From contig JACQXK010000021.1 in the NCBI GenBank assembly GCA_016208765.1, forward strand, positions 8,053 to 72,052: a stretch of DNA of 64,000 nucleotides. The letters run 5' to 3'. Positions 1,383 through 27,578 of the stretch are shown here, in pieces. The stretch comes from Candidatus Omnitrophota bacterium. GTDB lineage: Bacteria; Omnitrophota; Gorgyraeia; Gygaellales; Profunditerraquicolaceae. The position numbers and the translations under genes are program-made. The stretch's first letter is position 1. Each line of letters opens with the position of its first letter. Under the pieces are notes generated by a model. It was given only the letters and a program-made list of their open reading frames with translations. It was not told where the DNA came from and made no database searches.

Positions 1383-1392
1383 ATATATTTGT

Positions 1393-9814: not shown

Positions 9815-10741
9815 CTACTCTAAGAACTCTTTTACTATAAATATTGGCCTGCCCTGAATCTCTTTATATATCCTGAAAATATATTCACCCATTATTCCGA
9901 GAAATAACAACTGTATTGAAGCTACCAGATATATACTAAGTAAAGTTGACGACCAGCCAAATGGGGCTATTCCAGAGAATTTGCCTATAATGGTATAGAC
10001 AGTTGCCAGAAAGAAAAGTATCACTCCTGCCAGGCCGGTAAAAAGACAAATTTTAATTGGAAAGTTGGAAAACGAAAAAAATGCATCTAATCCAAGGTTG
10101 AATAATTTACCGAAATTCATTTTTGCTTCTCCGGTCATTCTGTCAGGCCTGAAATATTCTATATATCCCTGTCTAAACCCGACAAAGGACCTCAAACCCG
10201 GCAGATATCTGTTTCTTTCCTTAAACGATAAAAGGGCGTTTAAGGCTTTACGGTTAAGCATTGAAAAATTCCCGGCGTCAGAATCTGTATCTATTTTTAT
10301 AATATTTTTAAAGAAAATATGGAACACTTTAATGAACAGATTCTTTGGAAACTTTTCCTGCCGCCCGGTTCTTTTGCCGTATACAATATCGTAGTCCCCG
10401 TTAATCAGTTTTTCATACATTTCCTTTATCAATTCAGGCGGGTCCTGCATATCTCCATCCATCATTGCAATATACTCGCCTTTGGCATATTCTAAGCCTG
10501 CGGTATAAGCTGCCTGATGACCAAAATTTCTGGCAAGCATTAGAACTTTAAAGCGGTTATCTTTCTTATGGCATTCAATTAATTTGCTTAAGCTCTTATC
10601 TGAACTCCCGTCATCAACGCAAATAATTTCAAACAAATCCGTTATTTCTTTTAGAGCATTAATGCTTCTTTCAAAAATCTCTTTAATCAGATCTTCTTCA
10701 TTAAAAACAGGTATGACTAAACTGATAAGAGGTTTCGACAT
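9815..10741 (-). CDS. GT2 polyprenol-phosphate glycosyltransferase (ArnC/GtrB-like) with C-terminal TM helices.
   Basis: The N-terminus is LISLVIPVFNEE, followed by VDDGSSD and MDGDMQDPPE (DxD). There are two C-terminal hydrophobic helices. 308 aa. Confidence 0.85.
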   Translation of the reverse strand: MSKPLISLVIPVFNEEDLIKEIFERSINALKEITDLFEIICVDDGSSDKSLSKLIECHKKDNRFKVLMLARNFGHQAAYTAGLEYAKGEYIAMMDGDMQDPPELIKEMYEKLINGDYDIVYGKRTGRQEKFPKNLFIKVFHIFFKNIIKIDTDSDAGNFSMLNRKALNALLSFKERNRYLPGLRSFVGFRQGYIEYFRPDRMTGEAKMNFGKLFNLGLDAFFSFSNFPIKICLFTGLAGVILFFLATVYTIIGKFSGIAPFGWSSTLLSIYLVASIQLLFLGIMGEYIFRIYKEIQGRPIFIVKEFLE

Positions 10742-10791: not shown

Positions 10792-11508
10792 CTATAATTT
10801 CCGGGCAATCAGCAGGACCGATTTGCCTACCCTGTAACATAGCAGAGGATCAAATAATTCTGACATTCTGATTATTACCCTGTCCCAAAATAAGATCTGT
10901 TTAATTGACGGATAACTCTGCCTCAAAAACAACTTATTGGCTAATGATGCTGTCAGGCCTACTGAATCTAAATAGATAGCCTTTATGATATTAAAACCAT
11001 GTGGTACGATGGACATGAGTTGTTTTCTTGTATAACGCCTGAGATGTCCTATCGCCCTGTCAAATGGAGTATAAAGAAACTGGTGCGCAGGCACAACAAT
11101 CATCAACACACCGTTTGCATCAAGGTATTTCTCAGCTAAACCAAGCTCTGCCTTATCATCTTCAATATGTTCCATTACATCGATATAAATTATAGCGTCA
11201 AATAATTGCCCTAACGGCATGTCCTTCAGTGTGCCAACCTTACATCTGCAGCATGGGGGCAGATTGCTTTCAGCTATCTGTTTATTTATATTTTGGGCCA
11301 GATTCGGGTCAGGTTCCAAACATACCCATTCATCCTGTGAACCGTCGCATAAAGACAATGTGGTGCCGCCGATGCCGGCGCCCACTTCCAGTATTCTTCC
11401 TTTTAAATATTCCCGTAAAAACCCGCCGTAGTATCTTTTCCAGTTTACCGCTTTATCAAAGATAGTGAGTTCATCCCCTATGTACTTGTCAGGACTCTCA
11501 TTTACCAT
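10792..11508 (-). CDS. Class I SAM-dependent methyltransferase. Candidate sugar N- or O-methyltransferase.
   Basis: It carries the LEVGAGIGGTT glycine-rich SAM motif. At 238 aa it matches the size of TylM1/DesVI-type enzymes. Confidence 0.75.
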   Translation of the reverse strand: MVNESPDKYIGDELTIFDKAVNWKRYYGGFLREYLKGRILEVGAGIGGTTLSLCDGSQDEWVCLEPDPNLAQNINKQIAESNLPPCCRCKVGTLKDMPLGQLFDAIIYIDVMEHIEDDKAELGLAEKYLDANGVLMIVVPAHQFLYTPFDRAIGHLRRYTRKQLMSIVPHGFNIIKAIYLDSVGLTASLANKLFLRQSYPSIKQILFWDRVIIRMSELFDPLLCYRVGKSVLLIARKL

Positions 11509-11511
11509 ATT

Positions 11512-12249
11512 TTATTTTCTTGCAATACAAAATACGGACAATCCGAAAGGGAATCTTATTCCAGACATTATTAAAAAGTTCTCAATAGATAGCACTCCCG
11601 TAAGTATTTTATTGAACACCCCCGGCAATGGTTTCAGGTCGGATTCTATATGTTCTGCACTCATAAAAAACATCTCTAAAATTCTCTTAATAAAAGCTGC
11701 TGGAAAGAGAACTGTATTCCTGTAGGTCAATTTTTCAATGCTAAATCCGGCTTTTTCAATTTTTACTAACAGTTCTTTGCAGGTATACCTCCGCCTGGTA
11801 TGAACAGCTATATCATGCCTTCCTCTAAGAAAATTATAAGCCGGCACATTCAAGACAACTATCCCGTTCTTATTTACAACCCTGTAAAACTCCTGTAATG
11901 CTTTCAAATCGCTATAGACATTTGCATGATACAAAACATCCAGCGATATAACTACATCAAAGGAGTTGTCGCTGAACGGGATATTGCAGATTGATCCTTG
12001 TACGATATTATTTAATCCTCTCTTTTGGCAAAATTGAATTGCCTCTTCTGAGAAATCCAGTCCGCTTGCATCATATGCCTTGCAGCTTTCCAATGTCTTT
12101 CCAGTACCGCAACCGGCGTCCAGTATTTTTAAATTTCTTTCTTTTGATGCAAACTTATCAATCGAGGAAAACACCAATTTTCTTAAGCCGACGTACCACC
12201 AGTAACTATCTTCAATTTGGTACATTACTTTATACTCTTCTTTTTCCAT
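11512..12249 (-). CDS. Class I SAM-dependent methyltransferase. Candidate sugar N- or O-methyltransferase.
   Basis: SAM motif ILDAGCGTGKT. 245 aa. Confidence 0.75.
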   Translation of the reverse strand: MEKEEYKVMYQIEDSYWWYVGLRKLVFSSIDKFASKERNLKILDAGCGTGKTLESCKAYDASGLDFSEEAIQFCQKRGLNNIVQGSICNIPFSDNSFDVVISLDVLYHANVYSDLKALQEFYRVVNKNGIVVLNVPAYNFLRGRHDIAVHTRRRYTCKELLVKIEKAGFSIEKLTYRNTVLFPAAFIKRILEMFFMSAEHIESDLKPLPGVFNKILTGVLSIENFLIMSGIRFPFGLSVFCIARK

Positions 12250-12256
12250 ATACCCT

Positions 12257-13366
12257 TTAATCTATCTGAGACAAGATATCATGTAATGAATCGGCCACTG
12301 TCTTTTGCTCCTTTTCCGTTAAAGAAGGATACATAGGCAAGGAAAAAATTTCGTTTGCAGCCTTCTCTGTATGCGGCAGGTCGCCTGTTTTATAGCCTAT
12401 GAACCCGTAGCCGGTCATTGTATGGATCGGCCATGGGTAACTGATATTAACAAGAATATCTCTTTTTTTCAGCTCTGCAATAATTTGATCTCTCTTTAAA
12501 TGACGGCAAACATATAAATAATAAGCGTGACTGTTTCCGGGCGATGTTTTGGGTAGGATGAGATTTGTATCTGACAACAACTGATCATATTGTTGAGCAA
12601 GAAAATCTCTGCGTTCTATGTATTTTTCAAGATGCTTAAACTTGCTCATAAGAATAGCGGCATGAAGCTCATCAAGTCTTGAATTGTATCCGTGTTCTAC
12701 CGAGTAATAAGCTTTTTCCATGCCATAAAAACGAAGACGGAGCAGTTTCTTGTATAGCGCTTCATCATTTGTCAATACCATGCCGCCATCTCCATAGCCG
12801 CCGAGAATCTTGGTCGGATAAAACGAGAAAGACGATATATCGGACATTGAACCAGCCTTTTTCCCGTTAAAGGCGGCTCCGTGACTCTGGGCGCAGTCTT
12901 CAAGGACTTTTAATCCGTAAGCGTCAGCCGCCTGTTTAACATCATCCATATTGACGCATTGGCCGTAGAGGTGAACCGGTAAAATACATTTTGTTTTTTT
13001 TGTAATCGCTTTTTTCAGCAAAGAGGTGTCCATGAGATAGGTTTCCGGATCTATGTCAACGAATCGTGGAACTCCTCCGGTAGAAACAATAGCTGATACT
13101 GTGGGCACGGCGGTATTAGACACGGTGATCACCTCATCTCCAGATCCTATATCTAATGCCTTAAGCCCGAGAAAAATGGCATCTGTGCCGCTGTTGACTC
13201 CTACTCCATATTTTACGCCACAGTATTTTGCAAATTCCTCTTCAAATTTCTTTACGTTCTCACCGAGTATTAATACTCCGGATTTTAATACTTTTTCAAT
13301 CGCAGCATGAATTTCGTCTTTTTCATTCTCATACTCGCTGAGGTAATTCCAAACTTTTATCGTCAT
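12257..13366 (-). CDS. DegT/DnrJ/EryC1/StrS family PLP-dependent NDP-sugar aminotransferase.
   Basis: The regions GVNSGTDAIFLGLKAL and DEVITVSNTAVPTVSAI are typical of the family, as is the overall architecture. 369 aa. Confidence 0.9.
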   Translation of the reverse strand: MTIKVWNYLSEYENEKDEIHAAIEKVLKSGVLILGENVKKFEEEFAKYCGVKYGVGVNSGTDAIFLGLKALDIGSGDEVITVSNTAVPTVSAIVSTGGVPRFVDIDPETYLMDTSLLKKAITKKTKCILPVHLYGQCVNMDDVKQAADAYGLKVLEDCAQSHGAAFNGKKAGSMSDISSFSFYPTKILGGYGDGGMVLTNDEALYKKLLRLRFYGMEKAYYSVEHGYNSRLDELHAAILMSKFKHLEKYIERRDFLAQQYDQLLSDTNLILPKTSPGNSHAYYLYVCRHLKRDQIIAELKKRDILVNISYPWPIHTMTGYGFIGYKTGDLPHTEKAANEIFSLPMYPSLTEKEQKTVADSLHDILSQID

Positions 13367-13367
13367 T

Positions 13368-14330
13368 TTACTCCTTCCCTAAAGCGGTGCACCGCAGTTT
13401 ATGCAGAATGACTGCATCTGAAAGCAGATTTTCAGTGAGATATTTATAATTCCCCCCCTGCACTGCTCCTAATACTTGCTGAATATAAATTGAAAAACTG
13501 TCGGCCTTCGGAGCTTTTATAACGCCGGGAGTATTACACAGCTTAAAATGTATCTCGTTCTCCATATCTGCTGGGGTTGTGAAAACTCGTTCAACGGTAA
13601 CGGATACATCAGGGCCTAATAAACTGAGATAATTTTGATATCCCGTATCAAACCCGAAATGTCCTACCATCGCTCTTCCGCCTGGATATGATGCAAGCAT
13701 GCTGAAAGACGTATCTATGTTGTCGCTTCCGCCCCAACTGCAAATCCTGCAAAAAATTTCTTCAGGCTCTTCACCGAAAAACAATCTGCCGGCTGACACT
13801 GCATATGGGCCAAGGTCCCAAAGCGCTCCCCCGCCGAGATTTACTTTATATCTGAAATCTCCGGGGGATAACGGGGGGAAAGAAAATATAACCGTCAACC
13901 TTGTCGGGCTGCTTCTTGCTTTTAAAAAGATATCCCCGGCAGCCTGTATTTGTGGATGAAAGGCATAGACCGTGGCCTCGGACAAACATAAGCCGGATTT
14001 TTGAGCCAATTCCGATAAACGTTCCGCAGTATTAAAGCCAGTAAATGCCGGCTTGTCGACAATTACATGAAAACCTCTTACTAACGCTTTTTCAGCCCAT
14101 TTTGAGTGATCGCTGTTAACGGTTGAAATATAAACCAGATCTGCCTTACTTTTTGAAAGCGCAGTATCATAGTCGTTGTATATATCACCCTGAAATTTGT
14201 CGGGTAATGCTATCTTTGAAGCAAATGACTGTGACGCGATATCAATCCGGGTAATGGAGGGTATTTCTAACAGGGCGGGAATGACGCGCTTTTGCACTAT
14301 CCTTGAATATCCGATAATTAATATTTGCAT
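13368..14330 (-). CDS. Gfo/Idh/MocA family NAD(P)-dependent oxidoreductase. Candidate NDP-sugar 3-ketoreductase.
   Basis: It has an N-terminal Rossmann segment (MQILIIGYSRIVQKRVIPAL). It sits directly downstream of the 2,3-dehydratase, as in the KijD10/OleW-type arrangement. Confidence 0.75.
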   Translation of the reverse strand: MQILIIGYSRIVQKRVIPALLEIPSITRIDIASQSFASKIALPDKFQGDIYNDYDTALSKSKADLVYISTVNSDHSKWAEKALVRGFHVIVDKPAFTGFNTAERLSELAQKSGLCLSEATVYAFHPQIQAAGDIFLKARSSPTRLTVIFSFPPLSPGDFRYKVNLGGGALWDLGPYAVSAGRLFFGEEPEEIFCRICSWGGSDNIDTSFSMLASYPGGRAMVGHFGFDTGYQNYLSLLGPDVSVTVERVFTTPADMENEIHFKLCNTPGVIKAPKADSFSIYIQQVLGAVQGGNYKYLTENLLSDAVILHKLRCTALGKE

Positions 14331-14341
14331 TTAAACAGATC

Positions 14342-15793
14342 TCAAATAAAACTCAAACAAGAAAGTATGTTTCGTGCTTCGATATTGAAATAATTGTTAT
14401 ATCTTGTAAACTCCATAATTTGACCCAGAGTCATCCATTTATAATTTTCCGGAATATCTATTGATTCGGCATCTCCAAGCTCGACAATCATATTTTTGTT
14501 TTGCCAATGATAAAACCGCCCTCCTTCTTCGGACTGAATAGAAGAGTATCTTATCCTGTTTGGGGCGGCTTTCATAAAAAGATCCAGAAACAGCGGTTTA
14601 ATCGCGAGCTGCATTCTGTATTCGGCATCGGCGCATGATACCGTAGGGGCCATTTCCACAACGTCAAGATTACCGGGTTCCGGCTTTCCCTGAACCAGAA
14701 AATGGAGCACGCCGTTTATTTTTTTAGTTAGAAACCCTATTAGACCGTAGGAATAATGCTTCAATAGAGGCTGGGTCCAGCTTAACACCTCGCGGCTCCC
14801 TGCAATTACCGAAACCGCAATCACGGAAAAGAAATGTCCTGACTCATGATAAATCTCTCTGTCCGTATGTATCCAGCCTGATACCGCTTTTAAAGGAATG
14901 CTCCCGACCTTTATTTCATATCTCGTTTTTAATTCCGTAAACCAGCTTATTATCTCATCCGTGCTGTGAAGTGCGTGTCCTCTATCAAGCATTGAAAGAA
15001 ATATATCTTTGCAAAACCCTTTGAGTCTGTGGTCAAACAATTTTATCTCGTCGGGTTCGTTTGACAGCAGATATTCATGATCCTGCCTCAGTTCATCATC
15101 GATAAAGGGTATTCTTGATATTACCGATCTGGCATCCATGTTCACGAAATTGTCAGAGGCCAGAAGCTTCTTGATTTGTCCCAGTGTCAGCCATTGGAAG
15201 TCGTCATGCAAATAAATATCATCGTCTACCTCTATGATCATGTTCCGATTTCTTTTGCGTAAAAATCTGGAACCCTGTTCTGACTGCAGTTGGTCTATCA
15301 GTATTTTTGATTTTGATCTGTCCAAGAAATACTCGAGATAAGCAGGCAGCTTGCCTTGATGCACCTGGGTGTAATTGCTTTTGGTGGCTTGAACGGTGGG
15401 CGATAACTGATTGATATTTATATTGCCAGGCTCCATCTTGGCCTGCATGAGAAAATATCTGCAGCCGTCGAATTTCTTCGTTATTATCCCGAGAATTCCA
15501 ATCTCCGGTTGACTGATAATGGGTTGTTCCCATTCCCTGACGGACCCGCAATTAGTATGCACCCTTATTCCTTCAACCGTGAAAAATTTCCCGGAATCAT
15601 GAATAAGATTTTGCGAATCTTTCGCGAAGCGCCATTTGTCAAGCTTATCAAACGGAATCTGTTCAACTGAAAAGCGGTTTGCCGTTTCTCTGGAGTGAAA
15701 CCAAGAGATAAAGGCTTCCGACTTCCGGAAACGGTTTTCTTCCGTGAGAGCTGAAAACAAAAAACTTGATTCTTTAGATTCAGCGAAACGCAT
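14342..15793 (-). CDS. NDP-hexose 2,3-dehydratase (EvaA/TylX3/OleV family).
   Basis: 483 aa with an internal duplication. Two copies of the QAKxEPGN-type motif are present (LMQAKMEPGNINI and LVQGKPEPGNLDV), matching the two-domain Hexose_dehydrat architecture. Confidence 0.75.
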   Translation of the reverse strand: MRFAESKESSFLFSALTEENRFRKSEAFISWFHSRETANRFSVEQIPFDKLDKWRFAKDSQNLIHDSGKFFTVEGIRVHTNCGSVREWEQPIISQPEIGILGIITKKFDGCRYFLMQAKMEPGNININQLSPTVQATKSNYTQVHQGKLPAYLEYFLDRSKSKILIDQLQSEQGSRFLRKRNRNMIIEVDDDIYLHDDFQWLTLGQIKKLLASDNFVNMDARSVISRIPFIDDELRQDHEYLLSNEPDEIKLFDHRLKGFCKDIFLSMLDRGHALHSTDEIISWFTELKTRYEIKVGSIPLKAVSGWIHTDREIYHESGHFFSVIAVSVIAGSREVLSWTQPLLKHYSYGLIGFLTKKINGVLHFLVQGKPEPGNLDVVEMAPTVSCADAEYRMQLAIKPLFLDLFMKAAPNRIRYSSIQSEEGGRFYHWQNKNMIVELGDAESIDIPENYKWMTLGQIMEFTRYNNYFNIEARNILSCLSFI

Positions 15794-15827
15794 TTTTATA
15801 CAAATATTTCATCTCGGTTTTTGTCTT

Positions 15828-16256
15828 TTACGTCAAGTTTTTCTTCACGACGTTAAGGTATTCTTCCCAGCTTCTGATGGATTTTGAAATATTGTAATGA
15901 GTGTCAGCCAATACCATACACACAGCATCAGCGGAAAAATCAAAGATATTAATGAAAATCATCTTTGGAATAAATAGCCCCCGCTTAGCGTCATTCATCT
16001 CAAAAACCCTTGACTCCCTTCCATCACAGAGCTCCATTTTAAACGAGCCGGAAGAAGCTATAACGACCTGGTCAGTTTCAGTATGCGCATGGCCGCCTCT
16101 GGGCGAAACGATATGGTGCATGTAGAAAACCCTCTTTATGGTAATGGGGATATCCCTCTCACTCTCTATGGCCGTCAGGAAGCCCCTGGAATCATTTATA
16201 GAAGGCAAATCAATCCATTTTATATATTTGAAATTCGATTGTATTTCTTGCATCAT
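15828..16256 (-). CDS. FdtA/QdtA/Tyl1a-like cupin, NDP-4-keto-6-deoxyhexose 3,4-ketoisomerase.
   Basis: 142 aa. The motifs are SRGFLTAIE...IKRVFYM...PRGGHAH, and the small-cupin size fits. Confidence 0.65.
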   Translation of the reverse strand: MMQEIQSNFKYIKWIDLPSINDSRGFLTAIESERDIPITIKRVFYMHHIVSPRGGHAHTETDQVVIASSGSFKMELCDGRESRVFEMNDAKRGLFIPKMIFINIFDFSADAVCMVLADTHYNISKSIRSWEEYLNVVKKNLT

Positions 16257-16337: not shown

Positions 16338-17300
16338 CTATAAATCGCTTTTATTCCGGCATTCAAAATATTTCTTTATGATAAATTGCGGCTTCTTATT
16401 AAGAGATAAGAAAATCCTTCCAATGTATTCACCAAGCATACCGAGCGCTATCAATTGTATACCGGAAAAAATCGAGATTGAGACGGATAGAGTTGCAAAG
16501 CCAACAGGCAGGGTTGGGTCCAGTATTTTTTCTATTATATAATAAACTCCAAGCGCCATCCCGAATAACGCAAATACAAATCCGAATATTACCGCTCCTC
16601 TTAGCGGTAATATAGAAAAGTTGGTAAACATATTAAGCCATAATGAGATCAATTTTCTCAAAGTATATCCTGAGCGTCCGTGCTGACGCGCATGGTGTTC
16701 CACTTTAACCTTTCCGATTTTATCTGTGAATTGCAATATTAATCCGTCAATATAAGGAAAGGGGGCCTGATATTGAATGATTTCGTTTATTAAAAATCTG
16801 TTTAAAATCTTGAAACTCGAAAGATACAGATCCTTTGGTTTTCTCAGCATAACATTGGCGACTTTATCATTAAACCAGCTGCCGATATTTTTAAATAGAG
16901 AATCTTTCTTCTTTTCATAATATGAGTAAACAACATCATAATCATTTTCCTGTGCTTTGTGAACAAGTTTAGTGACCTCTTCTACCGGATTCTGAAAGTC
17001 GTCGTCCATAATGACCGCATAATCACCTGTTGCTTTGTTTAAGCCTGCCATTACCGCGCTATGCTCTCCAAAGTTTTTTGACAGAGAATAAAACCTTACA
17101 ATACTGCGATATCTCTCAAACAGTGATACACAAACTTCTTCTGAGCGGTCTTTTGAATTATCATTGATAAGTACTATTTCAAGTTTATACTGTTGGTTGA
17201 GGGTATTGATCAGAACTTCTACCAGCTTACCTATGGTCTTTTCCGCATTATAAACAGGGATAATAACAGATAAAGCAATCGACGGTGTTTTAACGTTCAT
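16338..17300 (-). CDS. GT2 polyprenol-phosphate glycosyltransferase (GtrB/ArnC-like) with C-terminal TM helices.
   Basis: LSVIIPVYNAEKT, INDNSKDRS and MDDDFQNP (DxD) are present, with a C-terminal hydrophobic pair. 320 aa. Confidence 0.85.
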   Translation of the reverse strand: MNVKTPSIALSVIIPVYNAEKTIGKLVEVLINTLNQQYKLEIVLINDNSKDRSEEVCVSLFERYRSIVRFYSLSKNFGEHSAVMAGLNKATGDYAVIMDDDFQNPVEEVTKLVHKAQENDYDVVYSYYEKKKDSLFKNIGSWFNDKVANVMLRKPKDLYLSSFKILNRFLINEIIQYQAPFPYIDGLILQFTDKIGKVKVEHHARQHGRSGYTLRKLISLWLNMFTNFSILPLRGAVIFGFVFALFGMALGVYYIIEKILDPTLPVGFATLSVSISIFSGIQLIALGMLGEYIGRIFLSLNKKPQFIIKKYFECRNKSDL

Positions 17301-17414: not shown

Positions 17415-18962
17415 TTATTTCCGGGGGACATAAATGAATTCTGGTCTAATGGCAAGCCCTGAGACCGGCCAAAATACATTTTCATCTTCAAAAGCTGTGT
17501 CTTGTTTTATATAATATTTCTTGATATATCTTAAACCCGGCCCTCTATCCTCAGCGCCGTTATTCGAAGAAAGAACAATGGCACTGAATCTTTTTTCCTG
17601 TAAGGCATTTTCTATTTCACTTAATAATCCCTCTTTGGGTTTGCCTTCATCCCACATTAAAATATCTCGAATTGCTGCTCCATGAGCATAACTTTTTTTT
17701 CCAGCCATAATTGACAGGTAGCCTGAATCAGGAATAAAAACCTCACCTTCTATTTGTTTTATTTTCCTAACCAATTCTTTGCCGGCTTCCAAATCCCTTT
17801 GATTAGGAATGTATAAAGCGGTATTATACCTAATAGGCTCAAGACAAAACTGCATAACACAAATAAGACACAAGAAAATTTTTATTAAAGACTGTCCTCT
17901 TTCAGACACAGTATGTATAGATTCTAAGATCATATTAAATGCCATACCAAATAAGATAGCCATACTAGCGAAAACCATTAATAAAGAATTCTGCCCGCCT
18001 CCCGGATTAACCCGGGATAAACATGATATCCCTACCATATCGATGAATACAATGGAGTAAAAAAGAAAATTCTTCTTGTTTGCATTGAAGAATTGAGCAA
18101 GTATGAAGAATATGGACAAAGCCAACGCAATGGGCATCGTAGGCAATATGTCTTTTTTCCAGAAATGAGCAAACATTTGATCTTTAAAAAAAGAGGAGGT
18201 CATTAACGGCGTCTTTGCCATTGAGAAAAAGAAATAATTATACCAGCCGTCGTGAATATAATTTAAAAGAAATAGTACACTGCCACCGACAATAATTGTA
18301 GTACCAATAAAATAAATAGACCGTCGTAAGTCCCACAGAAGACAATAAAGCATTATAGGCAATGAAACCAATAATGCACTTTGTTTAGTCAGGAAAGCAA
18401 GTACCATCACTATACCGGCGAGAATATACATTATGCTTGAACTTGCAAATTTTACCAGATAAACAACCAGTAGCAAAAATAGCAAAAAAAGTACATCAAC
18501 CCTGCCCATGTCAAACCAACCACCTGTCAGAGGGTATGATGCAGCAAATAAACACGAGGCAAGAATCCCTGCATATTTACTTCTTGTTTCTTTATAGACT
18601 ATAAGGAATATAACGTAAAAACAACCAAGAGATGAAATAAAAGATACAAGTCTTTGTGCTGTGAAGGTTAAACCGATAATAGTTGAGGCAGCGGCTGAAA
18701 TATAGAAATAAAGAGGTGCATAAAGCAAAGGAACATATTCTAATGATGGACTAACATATAATTTCTGTCCCGATCTTATCCTTGTTATTTCAGTTAGTAT
18801 CCCTCCCTCCATCCACTCTAATTCAAATGGATAGTTAATACGGGAAAAAACAATATACAAATATTTTACAACATATAAGATGCCGACTAATATTAATATG
18901 TATTTTGCAAACTTAGCTGTCCAGTTTAAAATAGTTTGATTCAAAACTGTCTGTTTCATCAA
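17415..18962 (-). CDS. Polytopic membrane protein of the YPFELEW family, paralog 1. Putative GT-C-like glycosyltransferase with a C-terminal periplasmic domain.
   Basis: 515 aa. The N-terminal region INYPFELEWMEGGILTE...SPSLEYVPLLYAPLYFYISAA is strongly similar to ORF 24064..25560. It has many TM helices followed by a roughly 150-aa soluble C-terminus. Confidence 0.6.
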   Translation of the reverse strand: MMKQTVLNQTILNWTAKFAKYILILVGILYVVKYLYIVFSRINYPFELEWMEGGILTEITRIRSGQKLYVSPSLEYVPLLYAPLYFYISAAASTIIGLTFTAQRLVSFISSLGCFYVIFLIVYKETRSKYAGILASCLFAASYPLTGGWFDMGRVDVLFLLFLLLVVYLVKFASSSIMYILAGIVMVLAFLTKQSALLVSLPIMLYCLLWDLRRSIYFIGTTIIVGGSVLFLLNYIHDGWYNYFFFSMAKTPLMTSSFFKDQMFAHFWKKDILPTMPIALALSIFFILAQFFNANKKNFLFYSIVFIDMVGISCLSRVNPGGGQNSLLMVFASMAILFGMAFNMILESIHTVSERGQSLIKIFLCLICVMQFCLEPIRYNTALYIPNQRDLEAGKELVRKIKQIEGEVFIPDSGYLSIMAGKKSYAHGAAIRDILMWDEGKPKEGLLSEIENALQEKRFSAIVLSSNNGAEDRGPGLRYIKKYYIKQDTAFEDENVFWPVSGLAIRPEFIYVPRK

Positions 18963-20836
18963 GGCTTAATCCGTGGTGGAAATGTAAAGGCAAGTTTTAA
19001 GTTTTCTGATAAATCATGATTATTAAATATCTTGCGTTCAAGGATCTCGATAGTATTTATATTTCTTACTATCCACTCAGAGGCCCTGCCATCATCAACA
19101 GCTTTTCTGTACATGCCTCTGCCGATAAGGTCAGACGATTTATATAGATTTAGTATGTCTTTTGCATAAGGATATACGGGATTATGCCCTGACATTGTCT
19201 CGCTATTTATCAGCAAGCGAGCAAGAACTGCATCTGTTAAACCCCAGCCATGTATAATCCTCTTGGAAAAATGTTCATAATCAGTCTCACACCATATGCC
19301 AATTTCTATGTCATCATATTTAAATTCCGTCTTTTTATTAACTTTTTTAATCTGGTCTCTCATGTCGGTTATATACCCCAAATGGATATGCTGCCCGGCC
19401 TGCATAAGAGATGCTGCTTCCGTTATTTTGACTTTATCAAAAAGCAGTTCTCTTTTAACTTTCTCCTCGGGTATCGAGTTATTATAAGTTGAGCTGAGAA
19501 AAATCGGATGTCTCTTTAGCTGGACAGGGTAAAATGAAAAAAACAAAAGTATAATGACCATCGTTATTGAAGGCACTGCTGATCTGTATTTCGATATATT
19601 AAACTGCTGCATAAAGTTGCCCAGAATGCCTGAGAAAGAACACGTTATAAGGATAAAGGGAAAGGCAAGATAGCGGTAATGGGTCCAGTCCCCGCCGATC
19701 TTAATTACATAAAGCAAAACAGGCAACGCCGTAATGACCATCATCACTCTCTTTGAAAGCTCCAATTCAATGCTTTTCTTTTTTAGAAAATAAATAAAAA
19801 ATAAAAATAGAACTGCTACTTCATAAAAATGATAAGTCCCGAATGTGTCATGAACATAAATAAGCCCCTGCTTTATATTGATCTTATTTTTGTAGTAAAA
19901 CGTGTTAGGAAATATATCGGCATAATAATAAATTCTGAATAAAACCCATGAACCTAAAGAAGTTATCATCAGCAAGACCATCTTTAATGGAAATTTCTTG
20001 TCATGCAGCCAGGTCCACACAGAGCAAAAAACAAAAGGGATGATCAGCTCATGCCTCACTAACGGTGACATAGCCAGCATGACTTGCAGGGTTCTTGATC
20101 CTGGGTTGAGTATGTATAATGCATATGCAACTGCAAGAACCTGAACGATCGACGTCTCCATCCAGGATGAAAAATGACAAAGCACAGCATAATTAAATGT
20201 AAGATACACCAAGGGGAAATTGATGCCGATTACAGGGGGAGAAAGCCTCCTGTCAAGTTTCACCAGCATTAACCAGAATAAAATAAAACTCAGTGTAGTT
20301 ATTAAACGGAAAATATTAGCCCAGTTAGCGCCTGTAGTCCTTAAAAAAGAAGCAAGAATTACCATAAATGGACTGCTCAGCCCATCAACATATTCGCCTT
20401 TATTGTAGACAAGACCATTTCGTAGAAATAACATGTTATCAATGTATCTTAATAAAATATAGGCGTCATCCATCACCCAAAAATACCATTGAATCAGAAA
20501 TAAACCCGCCACCAGGCAACACCACTCTATTGAGTGAATTTTGAGATATTCTCCTTTTTTGTATCTTGAAATGGAAACAAGAAGAAAAATAAAAAAGAAC
20601 ATGGTAACAAACAGGTTTTTTATCACTCCATAAAGCAACCAGTGCGCCTCCTTGTGATAATCTATTACCTGGTTTTCCATCGTTTGGAAAATGCCAAGAT
20701 CATACAGCGTCTTAATAAACTGGCTGCCGTAAAACTTATAAACTGCAAATGTCACAGGAATGCTTACTAATAACACCGCAATAAACAAAAGAGGAAGCTT
20801 GTTATCCCAAATCCATTTATTATTTTTCAATCCCAT
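18959..20836 (-). CDS. Putative GT-C fold membrane glycosyltransferase of the DDxY family, paralog of 1393..3045.
   Basis: 625 aa. The motif DDAYILLRYIDNMLFLRNGLVYNKGEYVDGLSSPF is present. The protein is polytopic with a C-terminal soluble domain. Confidence 0.55.
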   Translation of the reverse strand: MGLKNNKWIWDNKLPLLFIAVLLVSIPVTFAVYKFYGSQFIKTLYDLGIFQTMENQVIDYHKEAHWLLYGVIKNLFVTMFFFIFLLVSISRYKKGEYLKIHSIEWCCLVAGLFLIQWYFWVMDDAYILLRYIDNMLFLRNGLVYNKGEYVDGLSSPFMVILASFLRTTGANWANIFRLITTLSFILFWLMLVKLDRRLSPPVIGINFPLVYLTFNYAVLCHFSSWMETSIVQVLAVAYALYILNPGSRTLQVMLAMSPLVRHELIIPFVFCSVWTWLHDKKFPLKMVLLMITSLGSWVLFRIYYYADIFPNTFYYKNKINIKQGLIYVHDTFGTYHFYEVAVLFLFFIYFLKKKSIELELSKRVMMVITALPVLLYVIKIGGDWTHYRYLAFPFILITCSFSGILGNFMQQFNISKYRSAVPSITMVIILLFFSFYPVQLKRHPIFLSSTYNNSIPEEKVKRELLFDKVKITEAASLMQAGQHIHLGYITDMRDQIKKVNKKTEFKYDDIEIGIWCETDYEHFSKRIIHGWGLTDAVLARLLINSETMSGHNPVYPYAKDILNLYKSSDLIGRGMYRKAVDDGRASEWIVRNINTIEILERKIFNNHDLSENLKLAFTFPPRIKP

Positions 20837-20887
20837 TTTTGTCGCCTACGATCCTCATTCATCGTTTATATTGATGTCAAAAATAAA

Positions 20888-22156
20888 TTAATAACCCTGA
20901 TGACAATAATTGAAGCTCTCGTTCGTCTTATTACTGTAATAGGATAAGAAAGTTTCGGCTATCAGTCTGTTACCATTTTCATTCCAATGCATGTCTCTTT
21001 CAAGAAAATATTCGTCAAGTGTCTTCAATGGGCGATCTTTATTCAACTTCAGAAAGCAAGGAAAATAATTTATAAACCCGATATTCTCTTCTGCCGCGAA
21101 TTTCTTCCAAAATAAAACTTGCCTGGAGTCAAAATCGTTATGAAATATTTGGGCAGGCCATGGATAAACAGCGATTGTCATTTTTATATTGTGTTTCCTT
21201 GCAAGCTCAGCCAGTTTTTCCATGTATAATCTTGATTTCTCTAAGCCCCTCCTGCCAAATTCTTCATACAGTTTGTCATCCAAGCTCCACATACCCCTCT
21301 TTCCTGCAATCATATATTTTGGCATATTTTCATAATCATACACAGGATGCTCTTCCTTTTGCAGTAGAACATCATGAAGCTTATTTAGAAAAAAATAGCT
21401 TATTATGGTGTTATTTTTTAAAAAATACTTCATCCCGTGCTGAGGATCAGCTTGTTGCAAGCCACGTTGCTTGAGATCCGCTTCGTTCTGTCCCAAACAC
21501 ACCTTTTCATTTAGGTAAATGACTGTTTCATCCTCTCCGGAAGTATAACAGTATGCTTCGTCATATATGTCCGACATATCTATAAACACAATGAGTTCGT
21601 TAAACTTAAGCCCTAACTCTTCTATCAAGTGTTTTGTTTTTCTCCAATAGATCATTGGAGAATATGTAGCAACACCGGCATTCAAAACTTCAATATTCTC
21701 CAATAATAATTTGTCAGAAACGATACCCACAAAAGAGTCTTCAAAATTCATACCCACTCCTTCAGTGAAAGAATCTCCAATAAATAGTATTCTATATTTA
21801 TCCGACACAAGCGATGTCTCCTTCACTGAGTTGCTCTTAAAGCCAAGAGAATCTGTAAATAGATTGTACTGCCTATTGTCCCACATCGTTGTCTTCAAAG
21901 AGACAGAAGCCCGGATCTTCAAATCATGATGGTATATCTCGGATGGAATCCTGTATGACTTTTCGGTTGCGGTCAAGTCCTCTATCCAGCGGCGTCTCTT
22001 CTCTTCATACAAAAATTTAGAAAATGGTTCTCCTTTAATGTAGTTAAATGTGATAGCACAAATTACGTCAAGTAGAATAATAATAATTACAAATATTATA
22101 AACGTAAATATCTTCCCGCGTCTTTCAAAGATATTTTTTTGCGTTCCGCTGCTCAT
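20888..22156 (-). CDS. SGNH/GDSL hydrolase-fold protein with an N-terminal TM anchor. Putative glycan O-acetyl esterase or transferase.
   Basis: GDSL block I is FIGDSFTEGVG. Block V is DMHWNENGNRLIAE. The N-terminus has a hydrophobic helix. Confidence 0.7.
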   Translation of the reverse strand: MSSGTQKNIFERRGKIFTFIIFVIIIILLDVICAITFNYIKGEPFSKFLYEEKRRRWIEDLTATEKSYRIPSEIYHHDLKIRASVSLKTTMWDNRQYNLFTDSLGFKSNSVKETSLVSDKYRILFIGDSFTEGVGMNFEDSFVGIVSDKLLLENIEVLNAGVATYSPMIYWRKTKHLIEELGLKFNELIVFIDMSDIYDEAYCYTSGEDETVIYLNEKVCLGQNEADLKQRGLQQADPQHGMKYFLKNNTIISYFFLNKLHDVLLQKEEHPVYDYENMPKYMIAGKRGMWSLDDKLYEEFGRRGLEKSRLYMEKLAELARKHNIKMTIAVYPWPAQIFHNDFDSRQVLFWKKFAAEENIGFINYFPCFLKLNKDRPLKTLDEYFLERDMHWNENGNRLIAETFLSYYSNKTNESFNYCHQGY

Positions 22157-22232
22157 TGTCTTCTTAAGCGTAACATAACTATAATTCTCTCATGATTATG
22201 GTTACGATCAATTCCTCTCATATAGGCTCTGT

Positions 22233-24029
22233 CTAATCCATCCTTAACGACTTCGTGATAACATTAAGTTTAATTTGATTATCATCTTTTATCATTACAA
22301 AATCTAATGCCTCCCTGCTGACAAAAGCAGGTGGCCCGGTATTAATATTGACTTTTTTAACATAGTTGGTTTTAGAGTTCAAGTTTAACCATGACTTAAT
22401 GCTATCAGCGTTAGGCATAACAAAGTTTTTGGGGTAATTTTCTATGTTAATGGTAACGTTATTTGATAATTCCGGCAGGACTTTCAAGATTTTCATCAGA
22501 AACAACTCCCTCTTTCTCATAGAGTCCTTTAACTGTAAGTTAAAATCGATTATGACATAAGAGCACATTAGAACACTCAGTATAAATATTCCCATACCAA
22601 ACAAACGCTTGACAGGCTTCAGATAGGGGGTCTCAAACCATTCAATAAATATGACGGAAAGAATAATACTAAGCGGAACTAATGGATTGTATAGATAGCA
22701 ATACACAAAATTGGAAATAGCTACATATATACAAAGAGGCAGCAATATCCATATAAGTAAAAAAACTTTTAATTTATTCTTGTATAAAACCGGGAAAATA
22801 GATTTACCGCTACTGCCATAGTTGGCAATCACTACCAGAAAAAGGGTAAAGAAAAAAAGCAACGAATAAAATACATTCAGCAAGAAGAGCCTGGTTATCT
22901 CTAAAAAATTGATTAATGGATGCTCCCGTCCCTGCATTAGCCACTTAAAGAACTGCAAAAGTGGTTTCGGCCCTTTACCGTAATATGCATTTTCCGATAT
23001 TTGTTCTATCAACGGGTAGGCAAAAATAGCACATGAACTTAATATAACGACTGCAATTAAAAATATTATTATTAATTTTATACCACGACCGCATAACAAT
23101 ATTTTCTTGTACAACAAAGAAGAAATCAAAAGAGGAATTAGAGGGATAAAATAAACTATTTGTTTGTTATAGAAATAAAATGATTTAAACAAACTGATAG
23201 GATCTATCAAGTAATCGAAATATTTTAGAACAATGATATCATCCGGATTAAGTTTGTACCCATAATATCCACGCGCTGCATGACCCAGAAGGTATTGACG
23301 CCATGAAAAAATTAATATAGTCAATAGAACATAAGGAGCAACTATCTTTAAAGCGCGCACTATTCTGACACCGGCAGATTCCTCATCTGAAAAAATAATT
23401 AAATATACTAAAACCAAAAATGGCAGAATAATAGCCACCTCTTTTGAACCGGACGCCAGAACATAAAAAAATAACGAGGCAATTAGCAGGCCTTTACGAT
23501 AAGTCCTTGATGGAAGATATTTAAGGAAGGATAAAAAAGAAAGCGCTAAGAACAATGTACTTAAAGTATCCTCTCTGGTATCAATCAGAAGCACAGTATA
23601 TCTGTTAGTAGGATGAACAGCAAAAACAATAGCACTGATCCACGCAATTGACCGCCGCCCACCTGTCAGCTTCATCGCGATAAAAAAAACAAGGATGGAA
23701 GTCAATATATGAATAAGCATGTCTGTTAAATGGTAACCAAATGGATTTAGTCCCCATATATAATATTCTAAACTGAAGAATATTCCAGCTACCGGGCGCA
23801 AAAATACACCCTGGAATGAAGTATCTGCTAAAAGTGGTTTGGTGAAAATATTGAAGACATCCTTTAACGACTTAATTTGGTAAAGTTCAATCAATGAAAA
23901 GATATCGGAAGATGTAAAAAAAGAGCTGAGAATGTGCCGAAAGGTAATATAAATAAGCAGGATTACAGATAAAACCATGAAGGCAGTGGTATAAGGTTTA
24001 TTGGAACTTATCTCTTTTTTATCGTTCAT
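22233..24029 (-). CDS. GT-C membrane glycosyltransferase, PMT_2/TMTC-like, paralog 3.
   Basis: 598 aa. The motif WGLNPFGYHLTDMLIHILTSILVFF is present. Confidence 0.7.
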   Translation of the reverse strand: MNDKKEISSNKPYTTAFMVLSVILLIYITFRHILSSFFTSSDIFSLIELYQIKSLKDVFNIFTKPLLADTSFQGVFLRPVAGIFFSLEYYIWGLNPFGYHLTDMLIHILTSILVFFIAMKLTGGRRSIAWISAIVFAVHPTNRYTVLLIDTREDTLSTLFLALSFLSFLKYLPSRTYRKGLLIASLFFYVLASGSKEVAIILPFLVLVYLIIFSDEESAGVRIVRALKIVAPYVLLTILIFSWRQYLLGHAARGYYGYKLNPDDIIVLKYFDYLIDPISLFKSFYFYNKQIVYFIPLIPLLISSLLYKKILLCGRGIKLIIIFLIAVVILSSCAIFAYPLIEQISENAYYGKGPKPLLQFFKWLMQGREHPLINFLEITRLFLLNVFYSLLFFFTLFLVVIANYGSSGKSIFPVLYKNKLKVFLLIWILLPLCIYVAISNFVYCYLYNPLVPLSIILSVIFIEWFETPYLKPVKRLFGMGIFILSVLMCSYVIIDFNLQLKDSMRKRELFLMKILKVLPELSNNVTINIENYPKNFVMPNADSIKSWLNLNSKTNYVKKVNINTGPPAFVSREALDFVMIKDDNQIKLNVITKSLRMD

Positions 24030-24063
24030 ATTAAAATCAGGCCTCTTAACTTAAAGACAGTAA

Positions 24064-25560
24064 TTATCTGGGCGTATAAATAATCTCCGGTCTTGTTCTC
24101 ATACCGGTAACTGAGAAGAAGATATTATCTTTGTCGAAAATGCGCTCATTTTCTATGTAATATTCCTTCATGCCACGAGGGTACCAGGGTTCTGAATCAA
24201 TAATGATAGCGCTGAATTTTCGCTCTTTCATAGCTTGCTTGATTTCTTCAATAAGCTTAGACTTAATATGCGCATGTTTTTCACTACTTGTCGTTAAGAC
24301 ATCCCTCATCCCCATCTGGTGGGCATACCCTTTTTTACCGTTGAAAGAATTCAGATAACCGTGAAATGGAATATAGATCTCACCATCTATTTTAGCCAGT
24401 TTGCCTACGAGATCCCACCCGGCTTCAAGGTCTTCTTTTGATGGAATTTGATTCATGGGATTATAAATCAGAGAACCAAACTGCAATATGCAAACAAAAT
24501 ATAAAATACATTTCATCAAATCCTGTTTTCTCGCAGGCAGTGATTGACTGATCATCGATAGTTTATTTACTCCCAAACCAAACAGGATTGACGTAAAGGC
24601 ATAAGCAGGAAGCAACACATTATAATATCCCCCGCCCCTGTAACGGGAAAACCACGATGCACCAAACATTCCAACCGCGGTCAGAAGGTAAAAGGAAAAC
24701 ATCTGTTTCTTTGATACGTTTGTCAGCGATACTATATAGAATATCGCTATGAAAATCGCAATATAGAACGGCAACACTATATCTTTTATCCAGAAATGCA
24801 TTATTGGTCTTGTATCAAGAGGGGTTGTTTTCGGCAATTCAAACACATAAAAGTTGAACCAGCCATCGGACATATAATTGAATAATACGCTCCCGATGCC
24901 GATAATAGAAGCCAACGGGATTATAAAAAATAAAGCAGAACGCCTGTCTGATAAAATAAAATAAAGCATAATCGGCAAAGAAATCACCAATGCAGTCTGC
25001 TTTGTAAAAAAAGAGATGGAAAAAAATATTGCCGCAACGACGCGCGAAGCCGGGGAAGTTCTGCATTTCAACAGGTAAATCCCAACAAGCAAGCTAAAGA
25101 GAAAAAAAGAATCAACACGTCCGATATCAAACCATGAACCGCTTAATTGGAATGTAGCAGCGAATAAACAAGATGCCAGCATCGCTGATAAATTGTCCTT
25201 TGTTTCATGATTTACCATAAGGTAAATCATAATGAATGAACCTATCGAGGACACAAAAGAAATTATTCTAAGCGGAAGAAATCCGACACCGAGGATCTTG
25301 GACATAACGGCCGAGATATAAAAGAATAATGGCGTATAAATAGACGGTACAAATTCCAATGAAGGTGCTACATAATAGTTATGATTTGAAAGGACCCATC
25401 TTACATGTTCCAAAGATGCGCCTTCCTCCCATTCCAGTTCAAACGGATATTGTATACGAAAAAACACCATAATAAGGTAAGCAGCAATATATAATATCCC
25501 CCCTGCTAATAGAGTATATTTTAAAAATTTTGCTAACCGGTCCAAGGAATTACTTTCCAT
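24064..25560 (-). CDS. Polytopic membrane protein of the YPFELEW family, paralog 2.
   Basis: 498 aa. It carries the region IQYPFELEWEEGASLE...APSLEFVPSIYTPLFFYISAV. Confidence 0.6.
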   Translation of the reverse strand: MESNSLDRLAKFLKYTLLAGGILYIAAYLIMVFFRIQYPFELEWEEGASLEHVRWVLSNHNYYVAPSLEFVPSIYTPLFFYISAVMSKILGVGFLPLRIISFVSSIGSFIMIYLMVNHETKDNLSAMLASCLFAATFQLSGSWFDIGRVDSFFLFSLLVGIYLLKCRTSPASRVVAAIFFSISFFTKQTALVISLPIMLYFILSDRRSALFFIIPLASIIGIGSVLFNYMSDGWFNFYVFELPKTTPLDTRPIMHFWIKDIVLPFYIAIFIAIFYIVSLTNVSKKQMFSFYLLTAVGMFGASWFSRYRGGGYYNVLLPAYAFTSILFGLGVNKLSMISQSLPARKQDLMKCILYFVCILQFGSLIYNPMNQIPSKEDLEAGWDLVGKLAKIDGEIYIPFHGYLNSFNGKKGYAHQMGMRDVLTTSSEKHAHIKSKLIEEIKQAMKERKFSAIIIDSEPWYPRGMKEYYIENERIFDKDNIFFSVTGMRTRPEIIYTPR

Positions 25561-25601: not shown

Positions 25602-27578
25602 TCAGTATGCATTAGATCGCTTAATGCTTTTATTTGCACGGGAGAGTTCATTTTCAATTAACGCAGCGAGACGCTGCGCTATTTGAGGTTCCTCCTTCGA
25701 TATATCTCTTGTTTCATTAGTATCAGACTTGAGGTCAAAAAGAAGTGATTTATTCTTCTCCAGATAATTAACAAGCTTATAGCCTCCGTCCCAGACAGCT
25801 ATTGTGCCTTTATCGATAAAATAATTTCCAAGGATGCGGTTCTTCATCAATTGCATGGAAAATACCGGCCTCGGCTCATGCGTCTTGCCCTCAAGTACCG
25901 GAACCAATGAACGCCCTTCCATCCATTCTGGGACAGGGATATCTGCGAGCTCAAGAATAGTTGGAGCTATGTCTATTTGCTCTACAGGCATTTCTGCAGT
26001 CAGGGTCTTGGTTGTCCGTGGTGTCTTTATCACCAGAGGAACACGGACCAGAGATTCGTAAAGCTCAAACTCGCCATGGCTCACATATCCATTTGAAAAG
26101 CTCTCACCATGATCTGAAGTGAAAATAATAACCGTGTTGGACATGTCGGTTTTTTCACTGAGCCGTTCCATAAATATTTTAAATTCATTGTCTGCATCGA
26201 GAATAAACTCATCATACCGTTTTCTTAGAATATTCACCTTTCTCTGGGTGTCCGGTTTGTAATATGTCCCAATCAAGCTGCTGTTGATCTGTTTTTCGGG
26301 TGTATTCAATTCTTCTGCATCTCCGAATGCGCCCATATAAGTGGCACGGGGGTTATAAGGGAAATGAGGCGGATAAACATGTATGTATGCAAAGAACGGC
26401 TGTTCAGTCTTGCCGGCAATGACATCAAGAAAGCGGTTATACACCGTCTCAGGCCGTATTGAAGTTATATAGTAAGGGAAGCGAAAGAGCTTTATATTAA
26501 AAGGAGAAACAAGCGGGTTATCTATGAAAATCCATTTTGCTACAATAGGTCTTTTGAGATAAAATTCCACGCTCTTGTCAATCAGCCACGTCGGTGATAT
26601 CCAAAATGTGTCTACCTCATCTCTTATAATAAATGCATCTTTCATTCCCAAAGTCTTCGGATGCGCATAGTTATTTTGCGCAAAACCATATACAGCATAA
26701 CCATGCTCTCTTAAGATATCAGGCAAATTGTTTTTATAAAAACTGACGGGATGATTCTCCGCCAGATACCATACCCTGTGTGTCCATGGTCTTTGGCCCG
26801 TCAGGATGCTCATGGTTGAAGGAGTGGTCCAGTTAGATGTTGAATACGCGCGGTTAAAAACAATGGCGTCCTTTGCCCATTCAGCTATAAATGGTGTTGT
26901 AGGACGGTGGTAGCCGTATAACTGCATATCAAGTGCGGTCAAGGCATCCATTACAACAACTATAATATTAGGGCGCTTATTATTGCCGATAAATACTCCC
27001 TGAGCAGTTTTAGTTGATGGTTGAGAATGATATCCTGCCTTTGAATCAGAGGTGCTTTTTTTAATCATGGAAAAAGGGACGGCAAGAATTAACAGAACGG
27101 TAAAGATCCAGAACAGCGGGGCAATCCTTATGTCTATTCCAACAAGGGCTTTTTCAAAATTTATATACTTACTTGCCAACCAGAAGAGCACAAGAACAAG
27201 TAACCCGGATGAGATTAAAAACAAATAATAATTTATACCGATAGAATCGCTTATCGAAATATCCAGGAAAGTCTTTTTTAGGATGAACGCTATTATACCC
27301 AGTAAAAAATAAATCAGAACTTGCTCAAAACAATTTATCTTCAAATATCTTAGAGACACTTTTGACAAACCATAGGTGACTATCCAAAAAAGAAATGCAG
27401 CTATAACTCCAAGCAATGTCCATAAAATGAATGATAAAGACAAATCAGGCAGGAAATCTTTAAAGCCCATATAATAGGAATATCCGTCCCACTTGTAAAA
27501 AGCATCCCTTATAAACATCAGGGAAAATAAAATAAAAAATATCCTCAATGTTACAACTAAAGATTTTTTAGCTGACAT
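25602..27578 (-). CDS. Membrane-anchored sulfatase/alkaline-phosphatase superfamily protein (LtaS/EptA/OpgB-like), paralog 1.
   Basis: The N-terminus has about 5 TM helices. The C-terminal domain carries NIIVVVMDALTALD (metal-site motif) and TSDHGESFSNG (sulfatase DHGE motif). 658 aa. Confidence 0.8.
   Translation of the reverse strand: MSAKKSLVVTLRIFFILFSLMFIRDAFYKWDGYSYYMGFKDFLPDLSLSFILWTLLGVIAAFLFWIVTYGLSKVSLRYLKINCFEQVLIYFLLGIIAFILKKTFLDISISDSIGINYYLFLISSGLLVLVLFWLASKYINFEKALVGIDIRIAPLFWIFTVLLILAVPFSMIKKSTSDSKAGYHSQPSTKTAQGVFIGNNKRPNIIVVVMDALTALDMQLYGYHRPTTPFIAEWAKDAIVFNRAYSTSNWTTPSTMSILTGQRPWTHRVWYLAENHPVSFYKNNLPDILREHGYAVYGFAQNNYAHPKTLGMKDAFIIRDEVDTFWISPTWLIDKSVEFYLKRPIVAKWIFIDNPLVSPFNIKLFRFPYYITSIRPETVYNRFLDVIAGKTEQPFFAYIHVYPPHFPYNPRATYMGAFGDAEELNTPEKQINSSLIGTYYKPDTQRKVNILRKRYDEFILDADNEFKIFMERLSEKTDMSNTVIIFTSDHGESFSNGYVSHGEFELYESLVRVPLVIKTPRTTKTLTAEMPVEQIDIAPTILELADIPVPEWMEGRSLVPVLEGKTHEPRPVFSMQLMKNRILGNYFIDKGTIAVWDGGYKLVNYLEKNKSLLFDLKSDTNETRDISKEEPQIAQRLAALIENELSRANKSIKRSNAY

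Follow-up and report, generated by a model that had tools for sequence, protein, structure and literature searches.

Two membrane proteins, A and B, encoded in a 64,000-nucleotide stretch of Candidatus Omnitrophota DNA (assembly GCA_016208765.1, contig JACQXK010000021.1, positions 8,053 to 72,052; hereafter the window) are diverged paralogs of one large clade in the ArnT/PMT_2 branch of the GT-C glycosyltransferases (GT-C_A). It is established that the two are paralogs and well supported that they belong with the GT-C enzymes, and both are already covered by the Pfam family PMT_2 and by generic annotations. An earlier reading made from the letters alone (the sequence-only reading) had proposed both open reading frames (ORFs), which are found on the minus strand exactly where it placed them. 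The features of the two proteins are as follows, where TM1 is the first transmembrane (TM) helix.

17415..18962, minus strand: paralog A, predicted ArnT-like GT-C membrane glycosyltransferase, 515 amino acids (aa) from TTG, more likely 514 aa
24064..25560, minus strand: paralog B, predicted ArnT-like GT-C membrane glycosyltransferase, 498 aa
18804..18833, minus strand: motif YPFELEWMEG of A, residues 44–53 in the 515-aa numbering
25420..25449, minus strand: motif YPFELEWEEG of B, residues 38–47, between TM1 and the first juxtamembrane helix
17418..17843, minus strand: C-terminal soluble domain of A, about residues 374–515, by alignment to B
24067..24474, minus strand: C-terminal soluble alpha/beta domain of B, residues 363–498

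The AlphaFold2 model of B, built on 71 homologs, has a mean predicted local distance difference test score (pLDDT) of 94.8 and a predicted template modeling score (pTM) of 0.94. The predicted structure begins with a long TM1 (residues 4–37); the motif lies in the short loop after it, and a juxtamembrane helix (44–57) and about ten further membrane helices come next, for a total of about 11–13 TM helices followed by a soluble C-terminal domain. Foldseek comparison of the model with the PDB returns ArnT (5F15/5EZM) first, followed by STT3, PglB, ALG9 and others. The predicted fold is therefore that of a GT-C enzyme with ArnT as the top match, rather than the unrelated fold that would have counted against the earlier proposal. 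The structural features expected of GT-C_A are present in the model: a helix number within the range of 7–13, the conserved GT-C membrane module, and a fold like that of solved GT-C enzymes. The C-terminal domain of B, which begins at about residue 363, is a well-predicted alpha/beta domain and is presumed to be periplasmic. Such a soluble domain had been anticipated by the sequence-only reading, at a size of about 150 aa; the model gives about 135 aa. No significant structural match to this domain was found in the PDB, and there is thus no support for a PMT-type acceptor domain.

Both proteins belong to PF13231 (PMT_2), with scores of 35.8 bits for A (residues 82–225) and 34.2 bits for B (residues 76–217), where membership requires a score at or above the gathering threshold of 26.1 bits. 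The matched region corresponds roughly to TM2–TM6, and PF13231 is carried by all 120 homologs among the matches listed. ORF B is 100% identical to a protein from a Candidatus Omnitrophica metagenome-assembled genome (MAG) that is named "glycosyltransferase family 39 protein" at NCBI, and homologs carry the JGI name "Ara4N transferase-like". Given PMT_2 membership and these existing names, the family is classified at the superfamily level and unclassified only below it, so the description of it as previously unclassified does not hold. The suggestion of a novel GT-C subfamily is partly supported, by the predicted GT-C fold; its novelty was overstated in view of the PMT_2 membership, though no NCBIfam model matches A or B at E<=0.1 and there is no subfamily model. 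Neither PF02366 (PMT) nor MIR is detected in A or B at E<=0.1, so the NCBI "family 39" name is a loose label; a few homologs carry precomputed PF02366 matches.

The motif YPFELEW-x-EG directly follows TM1 in both ORFs, in agreement with the shared first-loop acidic motif of the sequence-only reading. We assessed its conservation in an alignment of 119 members that are 39–62% identical to B, and residues are given in B numbering. E46 is kept in all 117 members that have a residue at this position. The remaining motif positions are conserved to varying degrees (G47 in 115 of the 119, P39 in 113, W44 in 111, E41 in 100, E43 in 96), and position 45 is variable (M in 63, L in 17, Q in 12, E in 7, I in 7). 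WxEG also occurs in 127 of 145 further representatives of 50%-identity clusters; of the other 18, 17 have xE[GS] there, and the motif region of the remaining one, which carries a long N-terminal extension, was not displayed. The EWxEG conservation in homologs on which the earlier proposal depended is thus found. Outside the motif, Y75, P77, R98, D150, K187, Q188 and N314 are, like E46, invariant across the 119 members, and D145, R148, W234, W257, D260 and Q360 are invariant or nearly so, as are D377, G381, G393, H400 and K409 in the C-terminal domain.

The location of the motif is also as proposed, in the position of the GT-C catalytic motif. It lies at the start of the first extracytoplasmic helix after TM1, which is topologically where D55/E56 of ArnT and D77/E78 of Pmt1 are found. 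The conserved acidic residue expected in the first extracytoplasmic loop of a GT-C enzyme is E46, a glutamate instead of the usual aspartate.

D55/E56 of 5EZM, D77/E78 of Pmt1 and D281/D282 of EmbA constitute an aligned active-site motif, at least the first Asp of which is present in all transferases found in that study, and ArnT D158 contacts the acceptor and is joined to K203 by a salt bridge (PMC7801869). For comparison we recovered residues 36–414 of the Cupriavidus metallidurans ArnT chain from the PDB alignment. An offset of 3 puts the published D55, E84, K85, D158, K203, R270 and Y345 on conserved motifs of the recovered chain. D55 is the acceptor/base residue of ArnT, and K85 and R270 are reportedly its undecaprenyl-phosphate ligands, as Petrou et al. 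are said to have found in 2016. Compared by hhalign with a small ArnT alignment, the family alignment gives a match that is colinear over 335 columns and not significant (E 0.39). In this weak alignment E46-G47 pairs with ArnT E56-G57, Y75-T76-P77 with E84-K85-P86, R98 with R108, D150 with D158, and K187 (in TKQ) with K203 (in TKG), and N314 falls next to Y345. ArnT, which has two extra loop residues, places D55 opposite a gap beside variable position 45; K85 is aligned with T, P or A at position 76, and R270 with a variable position, with no conserved Arg near 245. If the register is right, this suggests that the clade keeps E56-G57, D158 and K203 of ArnT and lacks D55, K85 and R270. The family profile gave no hhalign match to E. 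coli ArnT alone. The search for homologs of E. coli ArnT returned only enterobacterial sequences of at least 76% identity among the matches listed, so the ArnT profile is shallow.

Aligned end to end, A and B are 43% identical with 63% positives over 514 columns (E 6e-133, BLASTP), which establishes them as full-length paralogs at an identity slightly above the 35–40% of the sequence-only reading. No DNA-level repeat links the two genes, no meaningful DNA repeats occur in 16000–27000, and no Rfam family was found in the window; the duplication is therefore old and visible at the protein level. Promoter- and terminator-like sites in 9000–28000 are not above chance. Directly after the listed TTG start of A (18962) comes an ATG at 18959, which forms a TGATG overlap with the stop of the gene upstream. 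Given this overlap, the ATG is probably the true start, and A is probably translationally coupled to the upstream gene, which encodes an AftB-like GT-C protein (18959-20836). In a neighbour-joining tree of the family, A branches outside the clade that holds B. Of the 119 aligned members, only A replaces H400 by Ser and P318 by Met, which suggests an altered specificity. It keeps E46, D145, R148, D150, K187, Q188 and N314, and all putative catalytic residues are retained.

The clade is large and widespread. At E<=1e-30, a profile search of 1.84 billion cluster representatives yielded 2,554 proteins, each standing for a 50%-identity cluster; the number rises to 8,029 at E<=1e-3, where other PMT_2 proteins are probably among the weaker matches. 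In species-representative genomes, at least 521 confirmed loci were found by a pattern scan. The phyla represented include Omnitrophota, Nitrospirota, Zixibacteria, Planctomycetota and Acidobacteriota, and also Myxococcota (cultured Polyangium strains), Chlorobiota/Ignavibacteria and Calditrichota. Many Chloroflexota carry the clade, including the cultured Oscillochloris trichoides DG6. We compared the neighbourhoods of 83 loci (81 distinct) by all-against-all clustering of their ORFs. Within 10 kb on either side, the family is present as a single copy in 78 of the 83 and as two copies in only 5, and we rejected an obligate pair like the Pmt1-Pmt2 or EmbA-EmbB heterodimers. The neighbour-joining tree shows one older duplication common to several Nitrospirae-type contigs and several lineage-specific ones.

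In the window, the minus strand from at least 47 kb to 8 kb is one tight array of envelope-glycan genes. Around the paralogs, in the order of transcription, it contains the following.

25602..27578, minus strand: sulfatase-family membrane protein, upstream of B
22233..24029, minus strand: TMTC/PMT-like GT-C membrane protein, 598 aa, 11 TM helices, directly downstream of B
20888..22156, minus strand: SGNH/GDSL-like protein located between the paralogs, one N-terminal TM helix (weak Pfam and NCBIfam SGNH matches)
18959..20836, minus strand: AftB-like GT-C membrane protein, 625 aa, stop codon overlapping the start of A
16338..17300, minus strand: GtrB/ArnC-type GT2, putative polyprenyl-phosphate sugar synthase (Pfam Glycos_transf_2, 105 bits)
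10792..16256, minus strand: nucleotide-sugar modification genes downstream of A (Pfam matches; intergenic gaps of 1–81 bp)
9815..10741, minus strand: second GtrB-type GT2 of the same array (Pfam GT2, 118 bits)

B thus lies between the sulfatase-family gene and the TMTC/PMT-like gene, and A directly upstream of the GtrB/ArnC-type GT2; the GT2 and the PMT-like gene are the neighbours that the sequence-only reading had noticed. The genes of 10792-16256, which may supply the sugar donor, encode, after the GtrB/ArnC-type GT2, an FdtA-like isomerase, a nucleoside diphosphate (NDP)-hexose 2,3-dehydratase, a GFO/IDH/MocA oxidoreductase, a DegT aminotransferase and two methyltransferases; the second GtrB-type GT2 comes last. 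Each GT2 has two C-terminal TM helices, and the NCBIfam scores of the one adjoining A, 180 bits for ArnC and 164 bits for PgfS, fall short of the equivalog cutoffs. The AftB-like protein at 18959-20836 matches AftB in the PDB (9dlf_C, E 1.6e-4) over residues 110–345, including a W-x-DD-x-x-I-x-LR motif, and scores 22.5 bits against the NCBIfam AftB model. Also encoded in this island are GT9, sulfatase-family (EptA/LtaS-like) and Bac_transf proteins, a Wzx-like flippase and GT4, a set typical of the assembly of lipopolysaccharide (LPS) or exopolysaccharide.

Some of this context recurs in other genomes. A GtrB-type GT2 whose best match in the window is 9815-10741 (219–236 bits) is found directly upstream of the family gene in three different lineages (loci L012, L016 and L033), and related GtrB-type GT2 genes are nearby in two more loci (L018 and L082). 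AftB-like GT-C proteins are directly adjacent to the family gene in L001, L021, L029, L053 and L080, among others; those in L029, L053 and L080 are relatives of 18959-20836. The Nitrospirae locus L001 (MAG JACRMS010000021.1) has two copies of the family gene that, as in the window, enclose SGNH and AftB-like genes, and homologs of the SGNH-like protein 20888-22156 in this locus score 353 and 288 bits.

Taking fold, motif and context together, we think it likely that A and B glycosylate an envelope glycan in the periplasm from a polyprenyl-phosphate sugar. On the cytoplasmic face of the membrane, a sugar would be attached to undecaprenyl phosphate by a GtrB/ArnC-type GT2 (16338-17300, 9815-10741 or both); the sugar may be the amino-deoxyhexose produced through the neighbouring genes for a dehydratase, isomerase, reductase, aminotransferase and methyltransferase. 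Once linked to the lipid, it would be flipped across the membrane, and A and B would transfer it to hydroxyls of an envelope glycan, either the LPS core/lipid A or a polysaccharide made by the same 64-kb island. E46 could act as the catalytic base or as an acid that positions the acceptor, with D150-K187 in the role of the ArnT D158-K203 pair, and the paralogs would most likely differ in donor or acceptor specificity. The Gtr and Arn systems are established examples of such three-component logic, in which a GT2 synthase works with a flippase and a GT-C (PMC11127046), and the layout of the window, with sugar synthesis genes, a polyprenyl-phosphate sugar synthase and GT-C transferases, resembles theirs. 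As in the Gtr (GtrA/GtrB/GtrC) and GT136 pentofuranose systems, a GtrB-type GT2 stands beside a GT-C protein in a surface-glycan locus (PMC11127046). Support for transfer from a lipid-phosphate sugar by A and B is circumstantial and comes from the adjacent GtrB-type GT2 genes. The GtrC-type enzymes form a mixed group drawn from other sequence families. In contrast to the Gtr systems, the window has no GtrA-type flippase near these genes, and most clade members have no GT2 within 10 kb.

Several observations weigh against this assignment and function. Near the genes, no small ORF for a GtrA-like flippase was found. The 83 loci contain no universally conserved neighbour, the commonest families occurring in at most 12, and a GtrB-like GT2 lies within 10 kb in only about 5 of the 81 distinct loci. 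Similarity to ArnT is undetectable by sequence, with no meaningful PDB match for A as a single phmmer query or for a 71-sequence family profile. The hhalign comparison is statistically weak, so its residue register may be shifted by one or two positions, and the clade appears to have no conserved counterpart to ArnT D55 or to the phosphate ligands K85 and R270. Chloroflexota generally lack LPS, so the presence of the clade in this phylum means that the acceptor cannot be lipid A in all members. Finally, we found no characterised or solved member of the clade.

A bolder interpretation, which we advance only tentatively, is that the YPFELEW clade is a distinct and very widespread GT-C family whose active site is rewired compared with ArnT, PMT and the oligosaccharyltransferases, and whose acceptor is common to diderms and monoderms. 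If so, the Glu of the E-L-E-W-x-E-G loop replaces the near-universal first-loop Asp, the ArnT-type Lys/Arg phosphate ligands are absent, and the acceptor would be something such as protein or a generic lipid-linked or wall glycan and not lipid A. The clade would then found a new CAZy family once characterised.

It is unlikely that A and B are protein O-glycosyltransferases, the role that the NCBI label "family 39" would imply. Such enzymes would transfer mannose or another sugar from polyprenyl phosphate to Ser/Thr of secreted proteins, for example exosortase-sorted PEP-CTERM proteins. Unlike PMT/POMT (GT39) and TMTC (GT105), A and B lack PF02366, MIR and TPR, and their motif is Glu-Gly where those enzymes have Asp-Glu or Asp-Asp. 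The best structural match is ArnT, the C-terminal domain has no significant structural match in the PDB, and the neighbours (GT9, sulfatase family, nucleotide-sugar modification) are of the LPS/polysaccharide type. AglB, PglB and STT3 (GT66) use diphosphate-linked oligosaccharide donors and carry WWDYG in a much larger C-terminal domain; nothing equivalent is seen in A or B.

We are also doubtful that A and B are pentofuranosyl transferases that use a polyprenyl-phospho-pentofuranose donor (arabinofuranose or ribofuranose), as in mycobacterial arabinan synthesis and the GT136 systems. The AftB-like gene coupled to A and the AftB-like neighbours in L001, L021, L029, L053 and L080 are consistent with such a role. 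In addition, L001 contains UbiA, FAD_binding_4 (DprE1-like), adh_short (DprE2-like) and HAD genes about 7–10 kb upstream of the family gene, a set that resembles the decaprenyl-phospho-arabinose pathway (PMC11127046). However, no UbiA or DprE1/DprE2-like gene is present among the annotated ORFs of the window. A GtrB-type GT2, an enzyme that produces polyprenyl-phospho-hexoses, is encoded directly next to A and next to the members in L012, L016 and L033. It could also be the AftB-like neighbour that uses a pentofuranose donor.

It is improbable that A and B are non-catalytic proteins of the GT-C fold that serve as scaffolds or lipid-binding subunits, as PIG-U/GAB1 does in the glycosylphosphatidylinositol (GPI) transamidase.

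The weakest alternative is that A and B are true ArnT orthologs that add 4-amino-4-deoxy-L-arabinose (Ara4N) to lipid A phosphates, which we regard as very improbable despite ArnT being the top structural match, the JGI name of the homologs, and the ArnC-like GT2 and DegT (ArnB-like) aminotransferase in the array. ArnT (CAZy GT83; solved from C. metallidurans as 5EZM/5F15) is an undecaprenyl-phosphate-L-Ara4N:lipid A transferase to which identity is about 11%, and it lacks the YPFELEWxEG hallmark of the clade. A and B fail as GT83 orthologs both in sequence-level membership, with no NCBIfam or other sequence-level ArnT match, and in residues, where equivalents of D55, K85 and R270 are absent from the weak alignment. 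The window genes lack an Arn operon context, ArnA or ArnD homologs were not found, and the sugar indicated by the 2,3-dehydratase and FdtA is a 6-deoxyhexose derivative and not Ara4N. The clade also occurs in phyla without LPS, with members in Chloroflexota.

GT-C enzymes decorate bacterial envelopes, with ArnT-type modifications driving polymyxin resistance and Gtr-type modifications driving serotype conversion. The system described here is not of a new kind: its fold and Pfam family were already known, as was the likely three-component logic. What is new is a large ArnT-like clade whose first-loop and phosphate-binding signature appears altered. The clade is large and no studied member was found, so characterising one member biochemically would give an annotation to thousands of genes. 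With its apparent loss of the first-loop Asp and of the ArnT phosphate ligands, the clade is a reasonable test case for the flexibility of the GT-C active site.

The TMTC/PMT-like protein at 22233-24029 is less classified than the YPFELEW family. It has no Pfam, NCBIfam or PDB sequence match and is named "glycosyltransferase family 39 protein" at NCBI. Its N-terminal 35–45% is homologous to TPR-bearing bacterial "protein O-mannosyl-transferase" proteins with PF13231 or PF02366. Only three full-length homologs were found (33–52% identity), and it lacks the TPR domain of its TMTC/PMT-like relatives.

The window contains two AftB-like GT-C proteins, at 1393-3045 and 18959-20836 (minus strand). 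Orthologs of 1393-3045 lie directly downstream of the family gene in the Nitrospirae loci L001 (11631-13268) and L021 (11565-13256), with 671 and 508 bits, and it is the other AftB-like paralog, 18959-20836, that is coupled to A. In L001, the UbiA set is followed (within 1-9988) by a sulfatase-family gene, a PP-binding carrier protein, MBOAT and DUF1574, which resemble a Dlt-like acylation set.

The sulfatase-family proteins at 25602-27578 and 30468-32429 are membrane-anchored paralogs of EptA/LtaS-like architecture with about six N-terminal TM helices, and a 74-aa hydrophobic ORF (32426-32650) overlaps the start of the 30468-32429 gene by 4 nt. Further along the minus strand, a GT2 (36340-37077), a weak PMT_2 GT-C (37125-38777) and a YdjC-like protein (38764-39555) are encoded side by side. 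We take this trio to resemble the FlmF2/FlmK/NaxD module of Francisella and the LgmA/B/C module of Bordetella, through which deacetylated hexosamine is added to lipid A. YdjC-like and PMT_2 genes are again adjacent, and preceded by a relative of the nearby window GT2 40613-41404, in the Nitrospiraceae locus L021 (38-3316; 282–583 bits). The exosortase EpsH (198 bits) and a DUF3485 (EpsI-like) protein are encoded in the same array (42547-44063, minus strand), from which the island may be a PEP-CTERM/exosortase-associated polysaccharide locus.

GT-C-type proteins are unusually numerous in the window, with eight supported examples (starting at 1393, 17415, 18959, 22233, 24064, 28808, 33685 and 37125), and three more multi-TM proteins are without a family match (4617-6389, 8265-9737 and 57788-59350). 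The window also encodes about ten GT2 genes, GT4, GT9, a carbamoyltransferase, a sulfotransferase and several SGNH genes.

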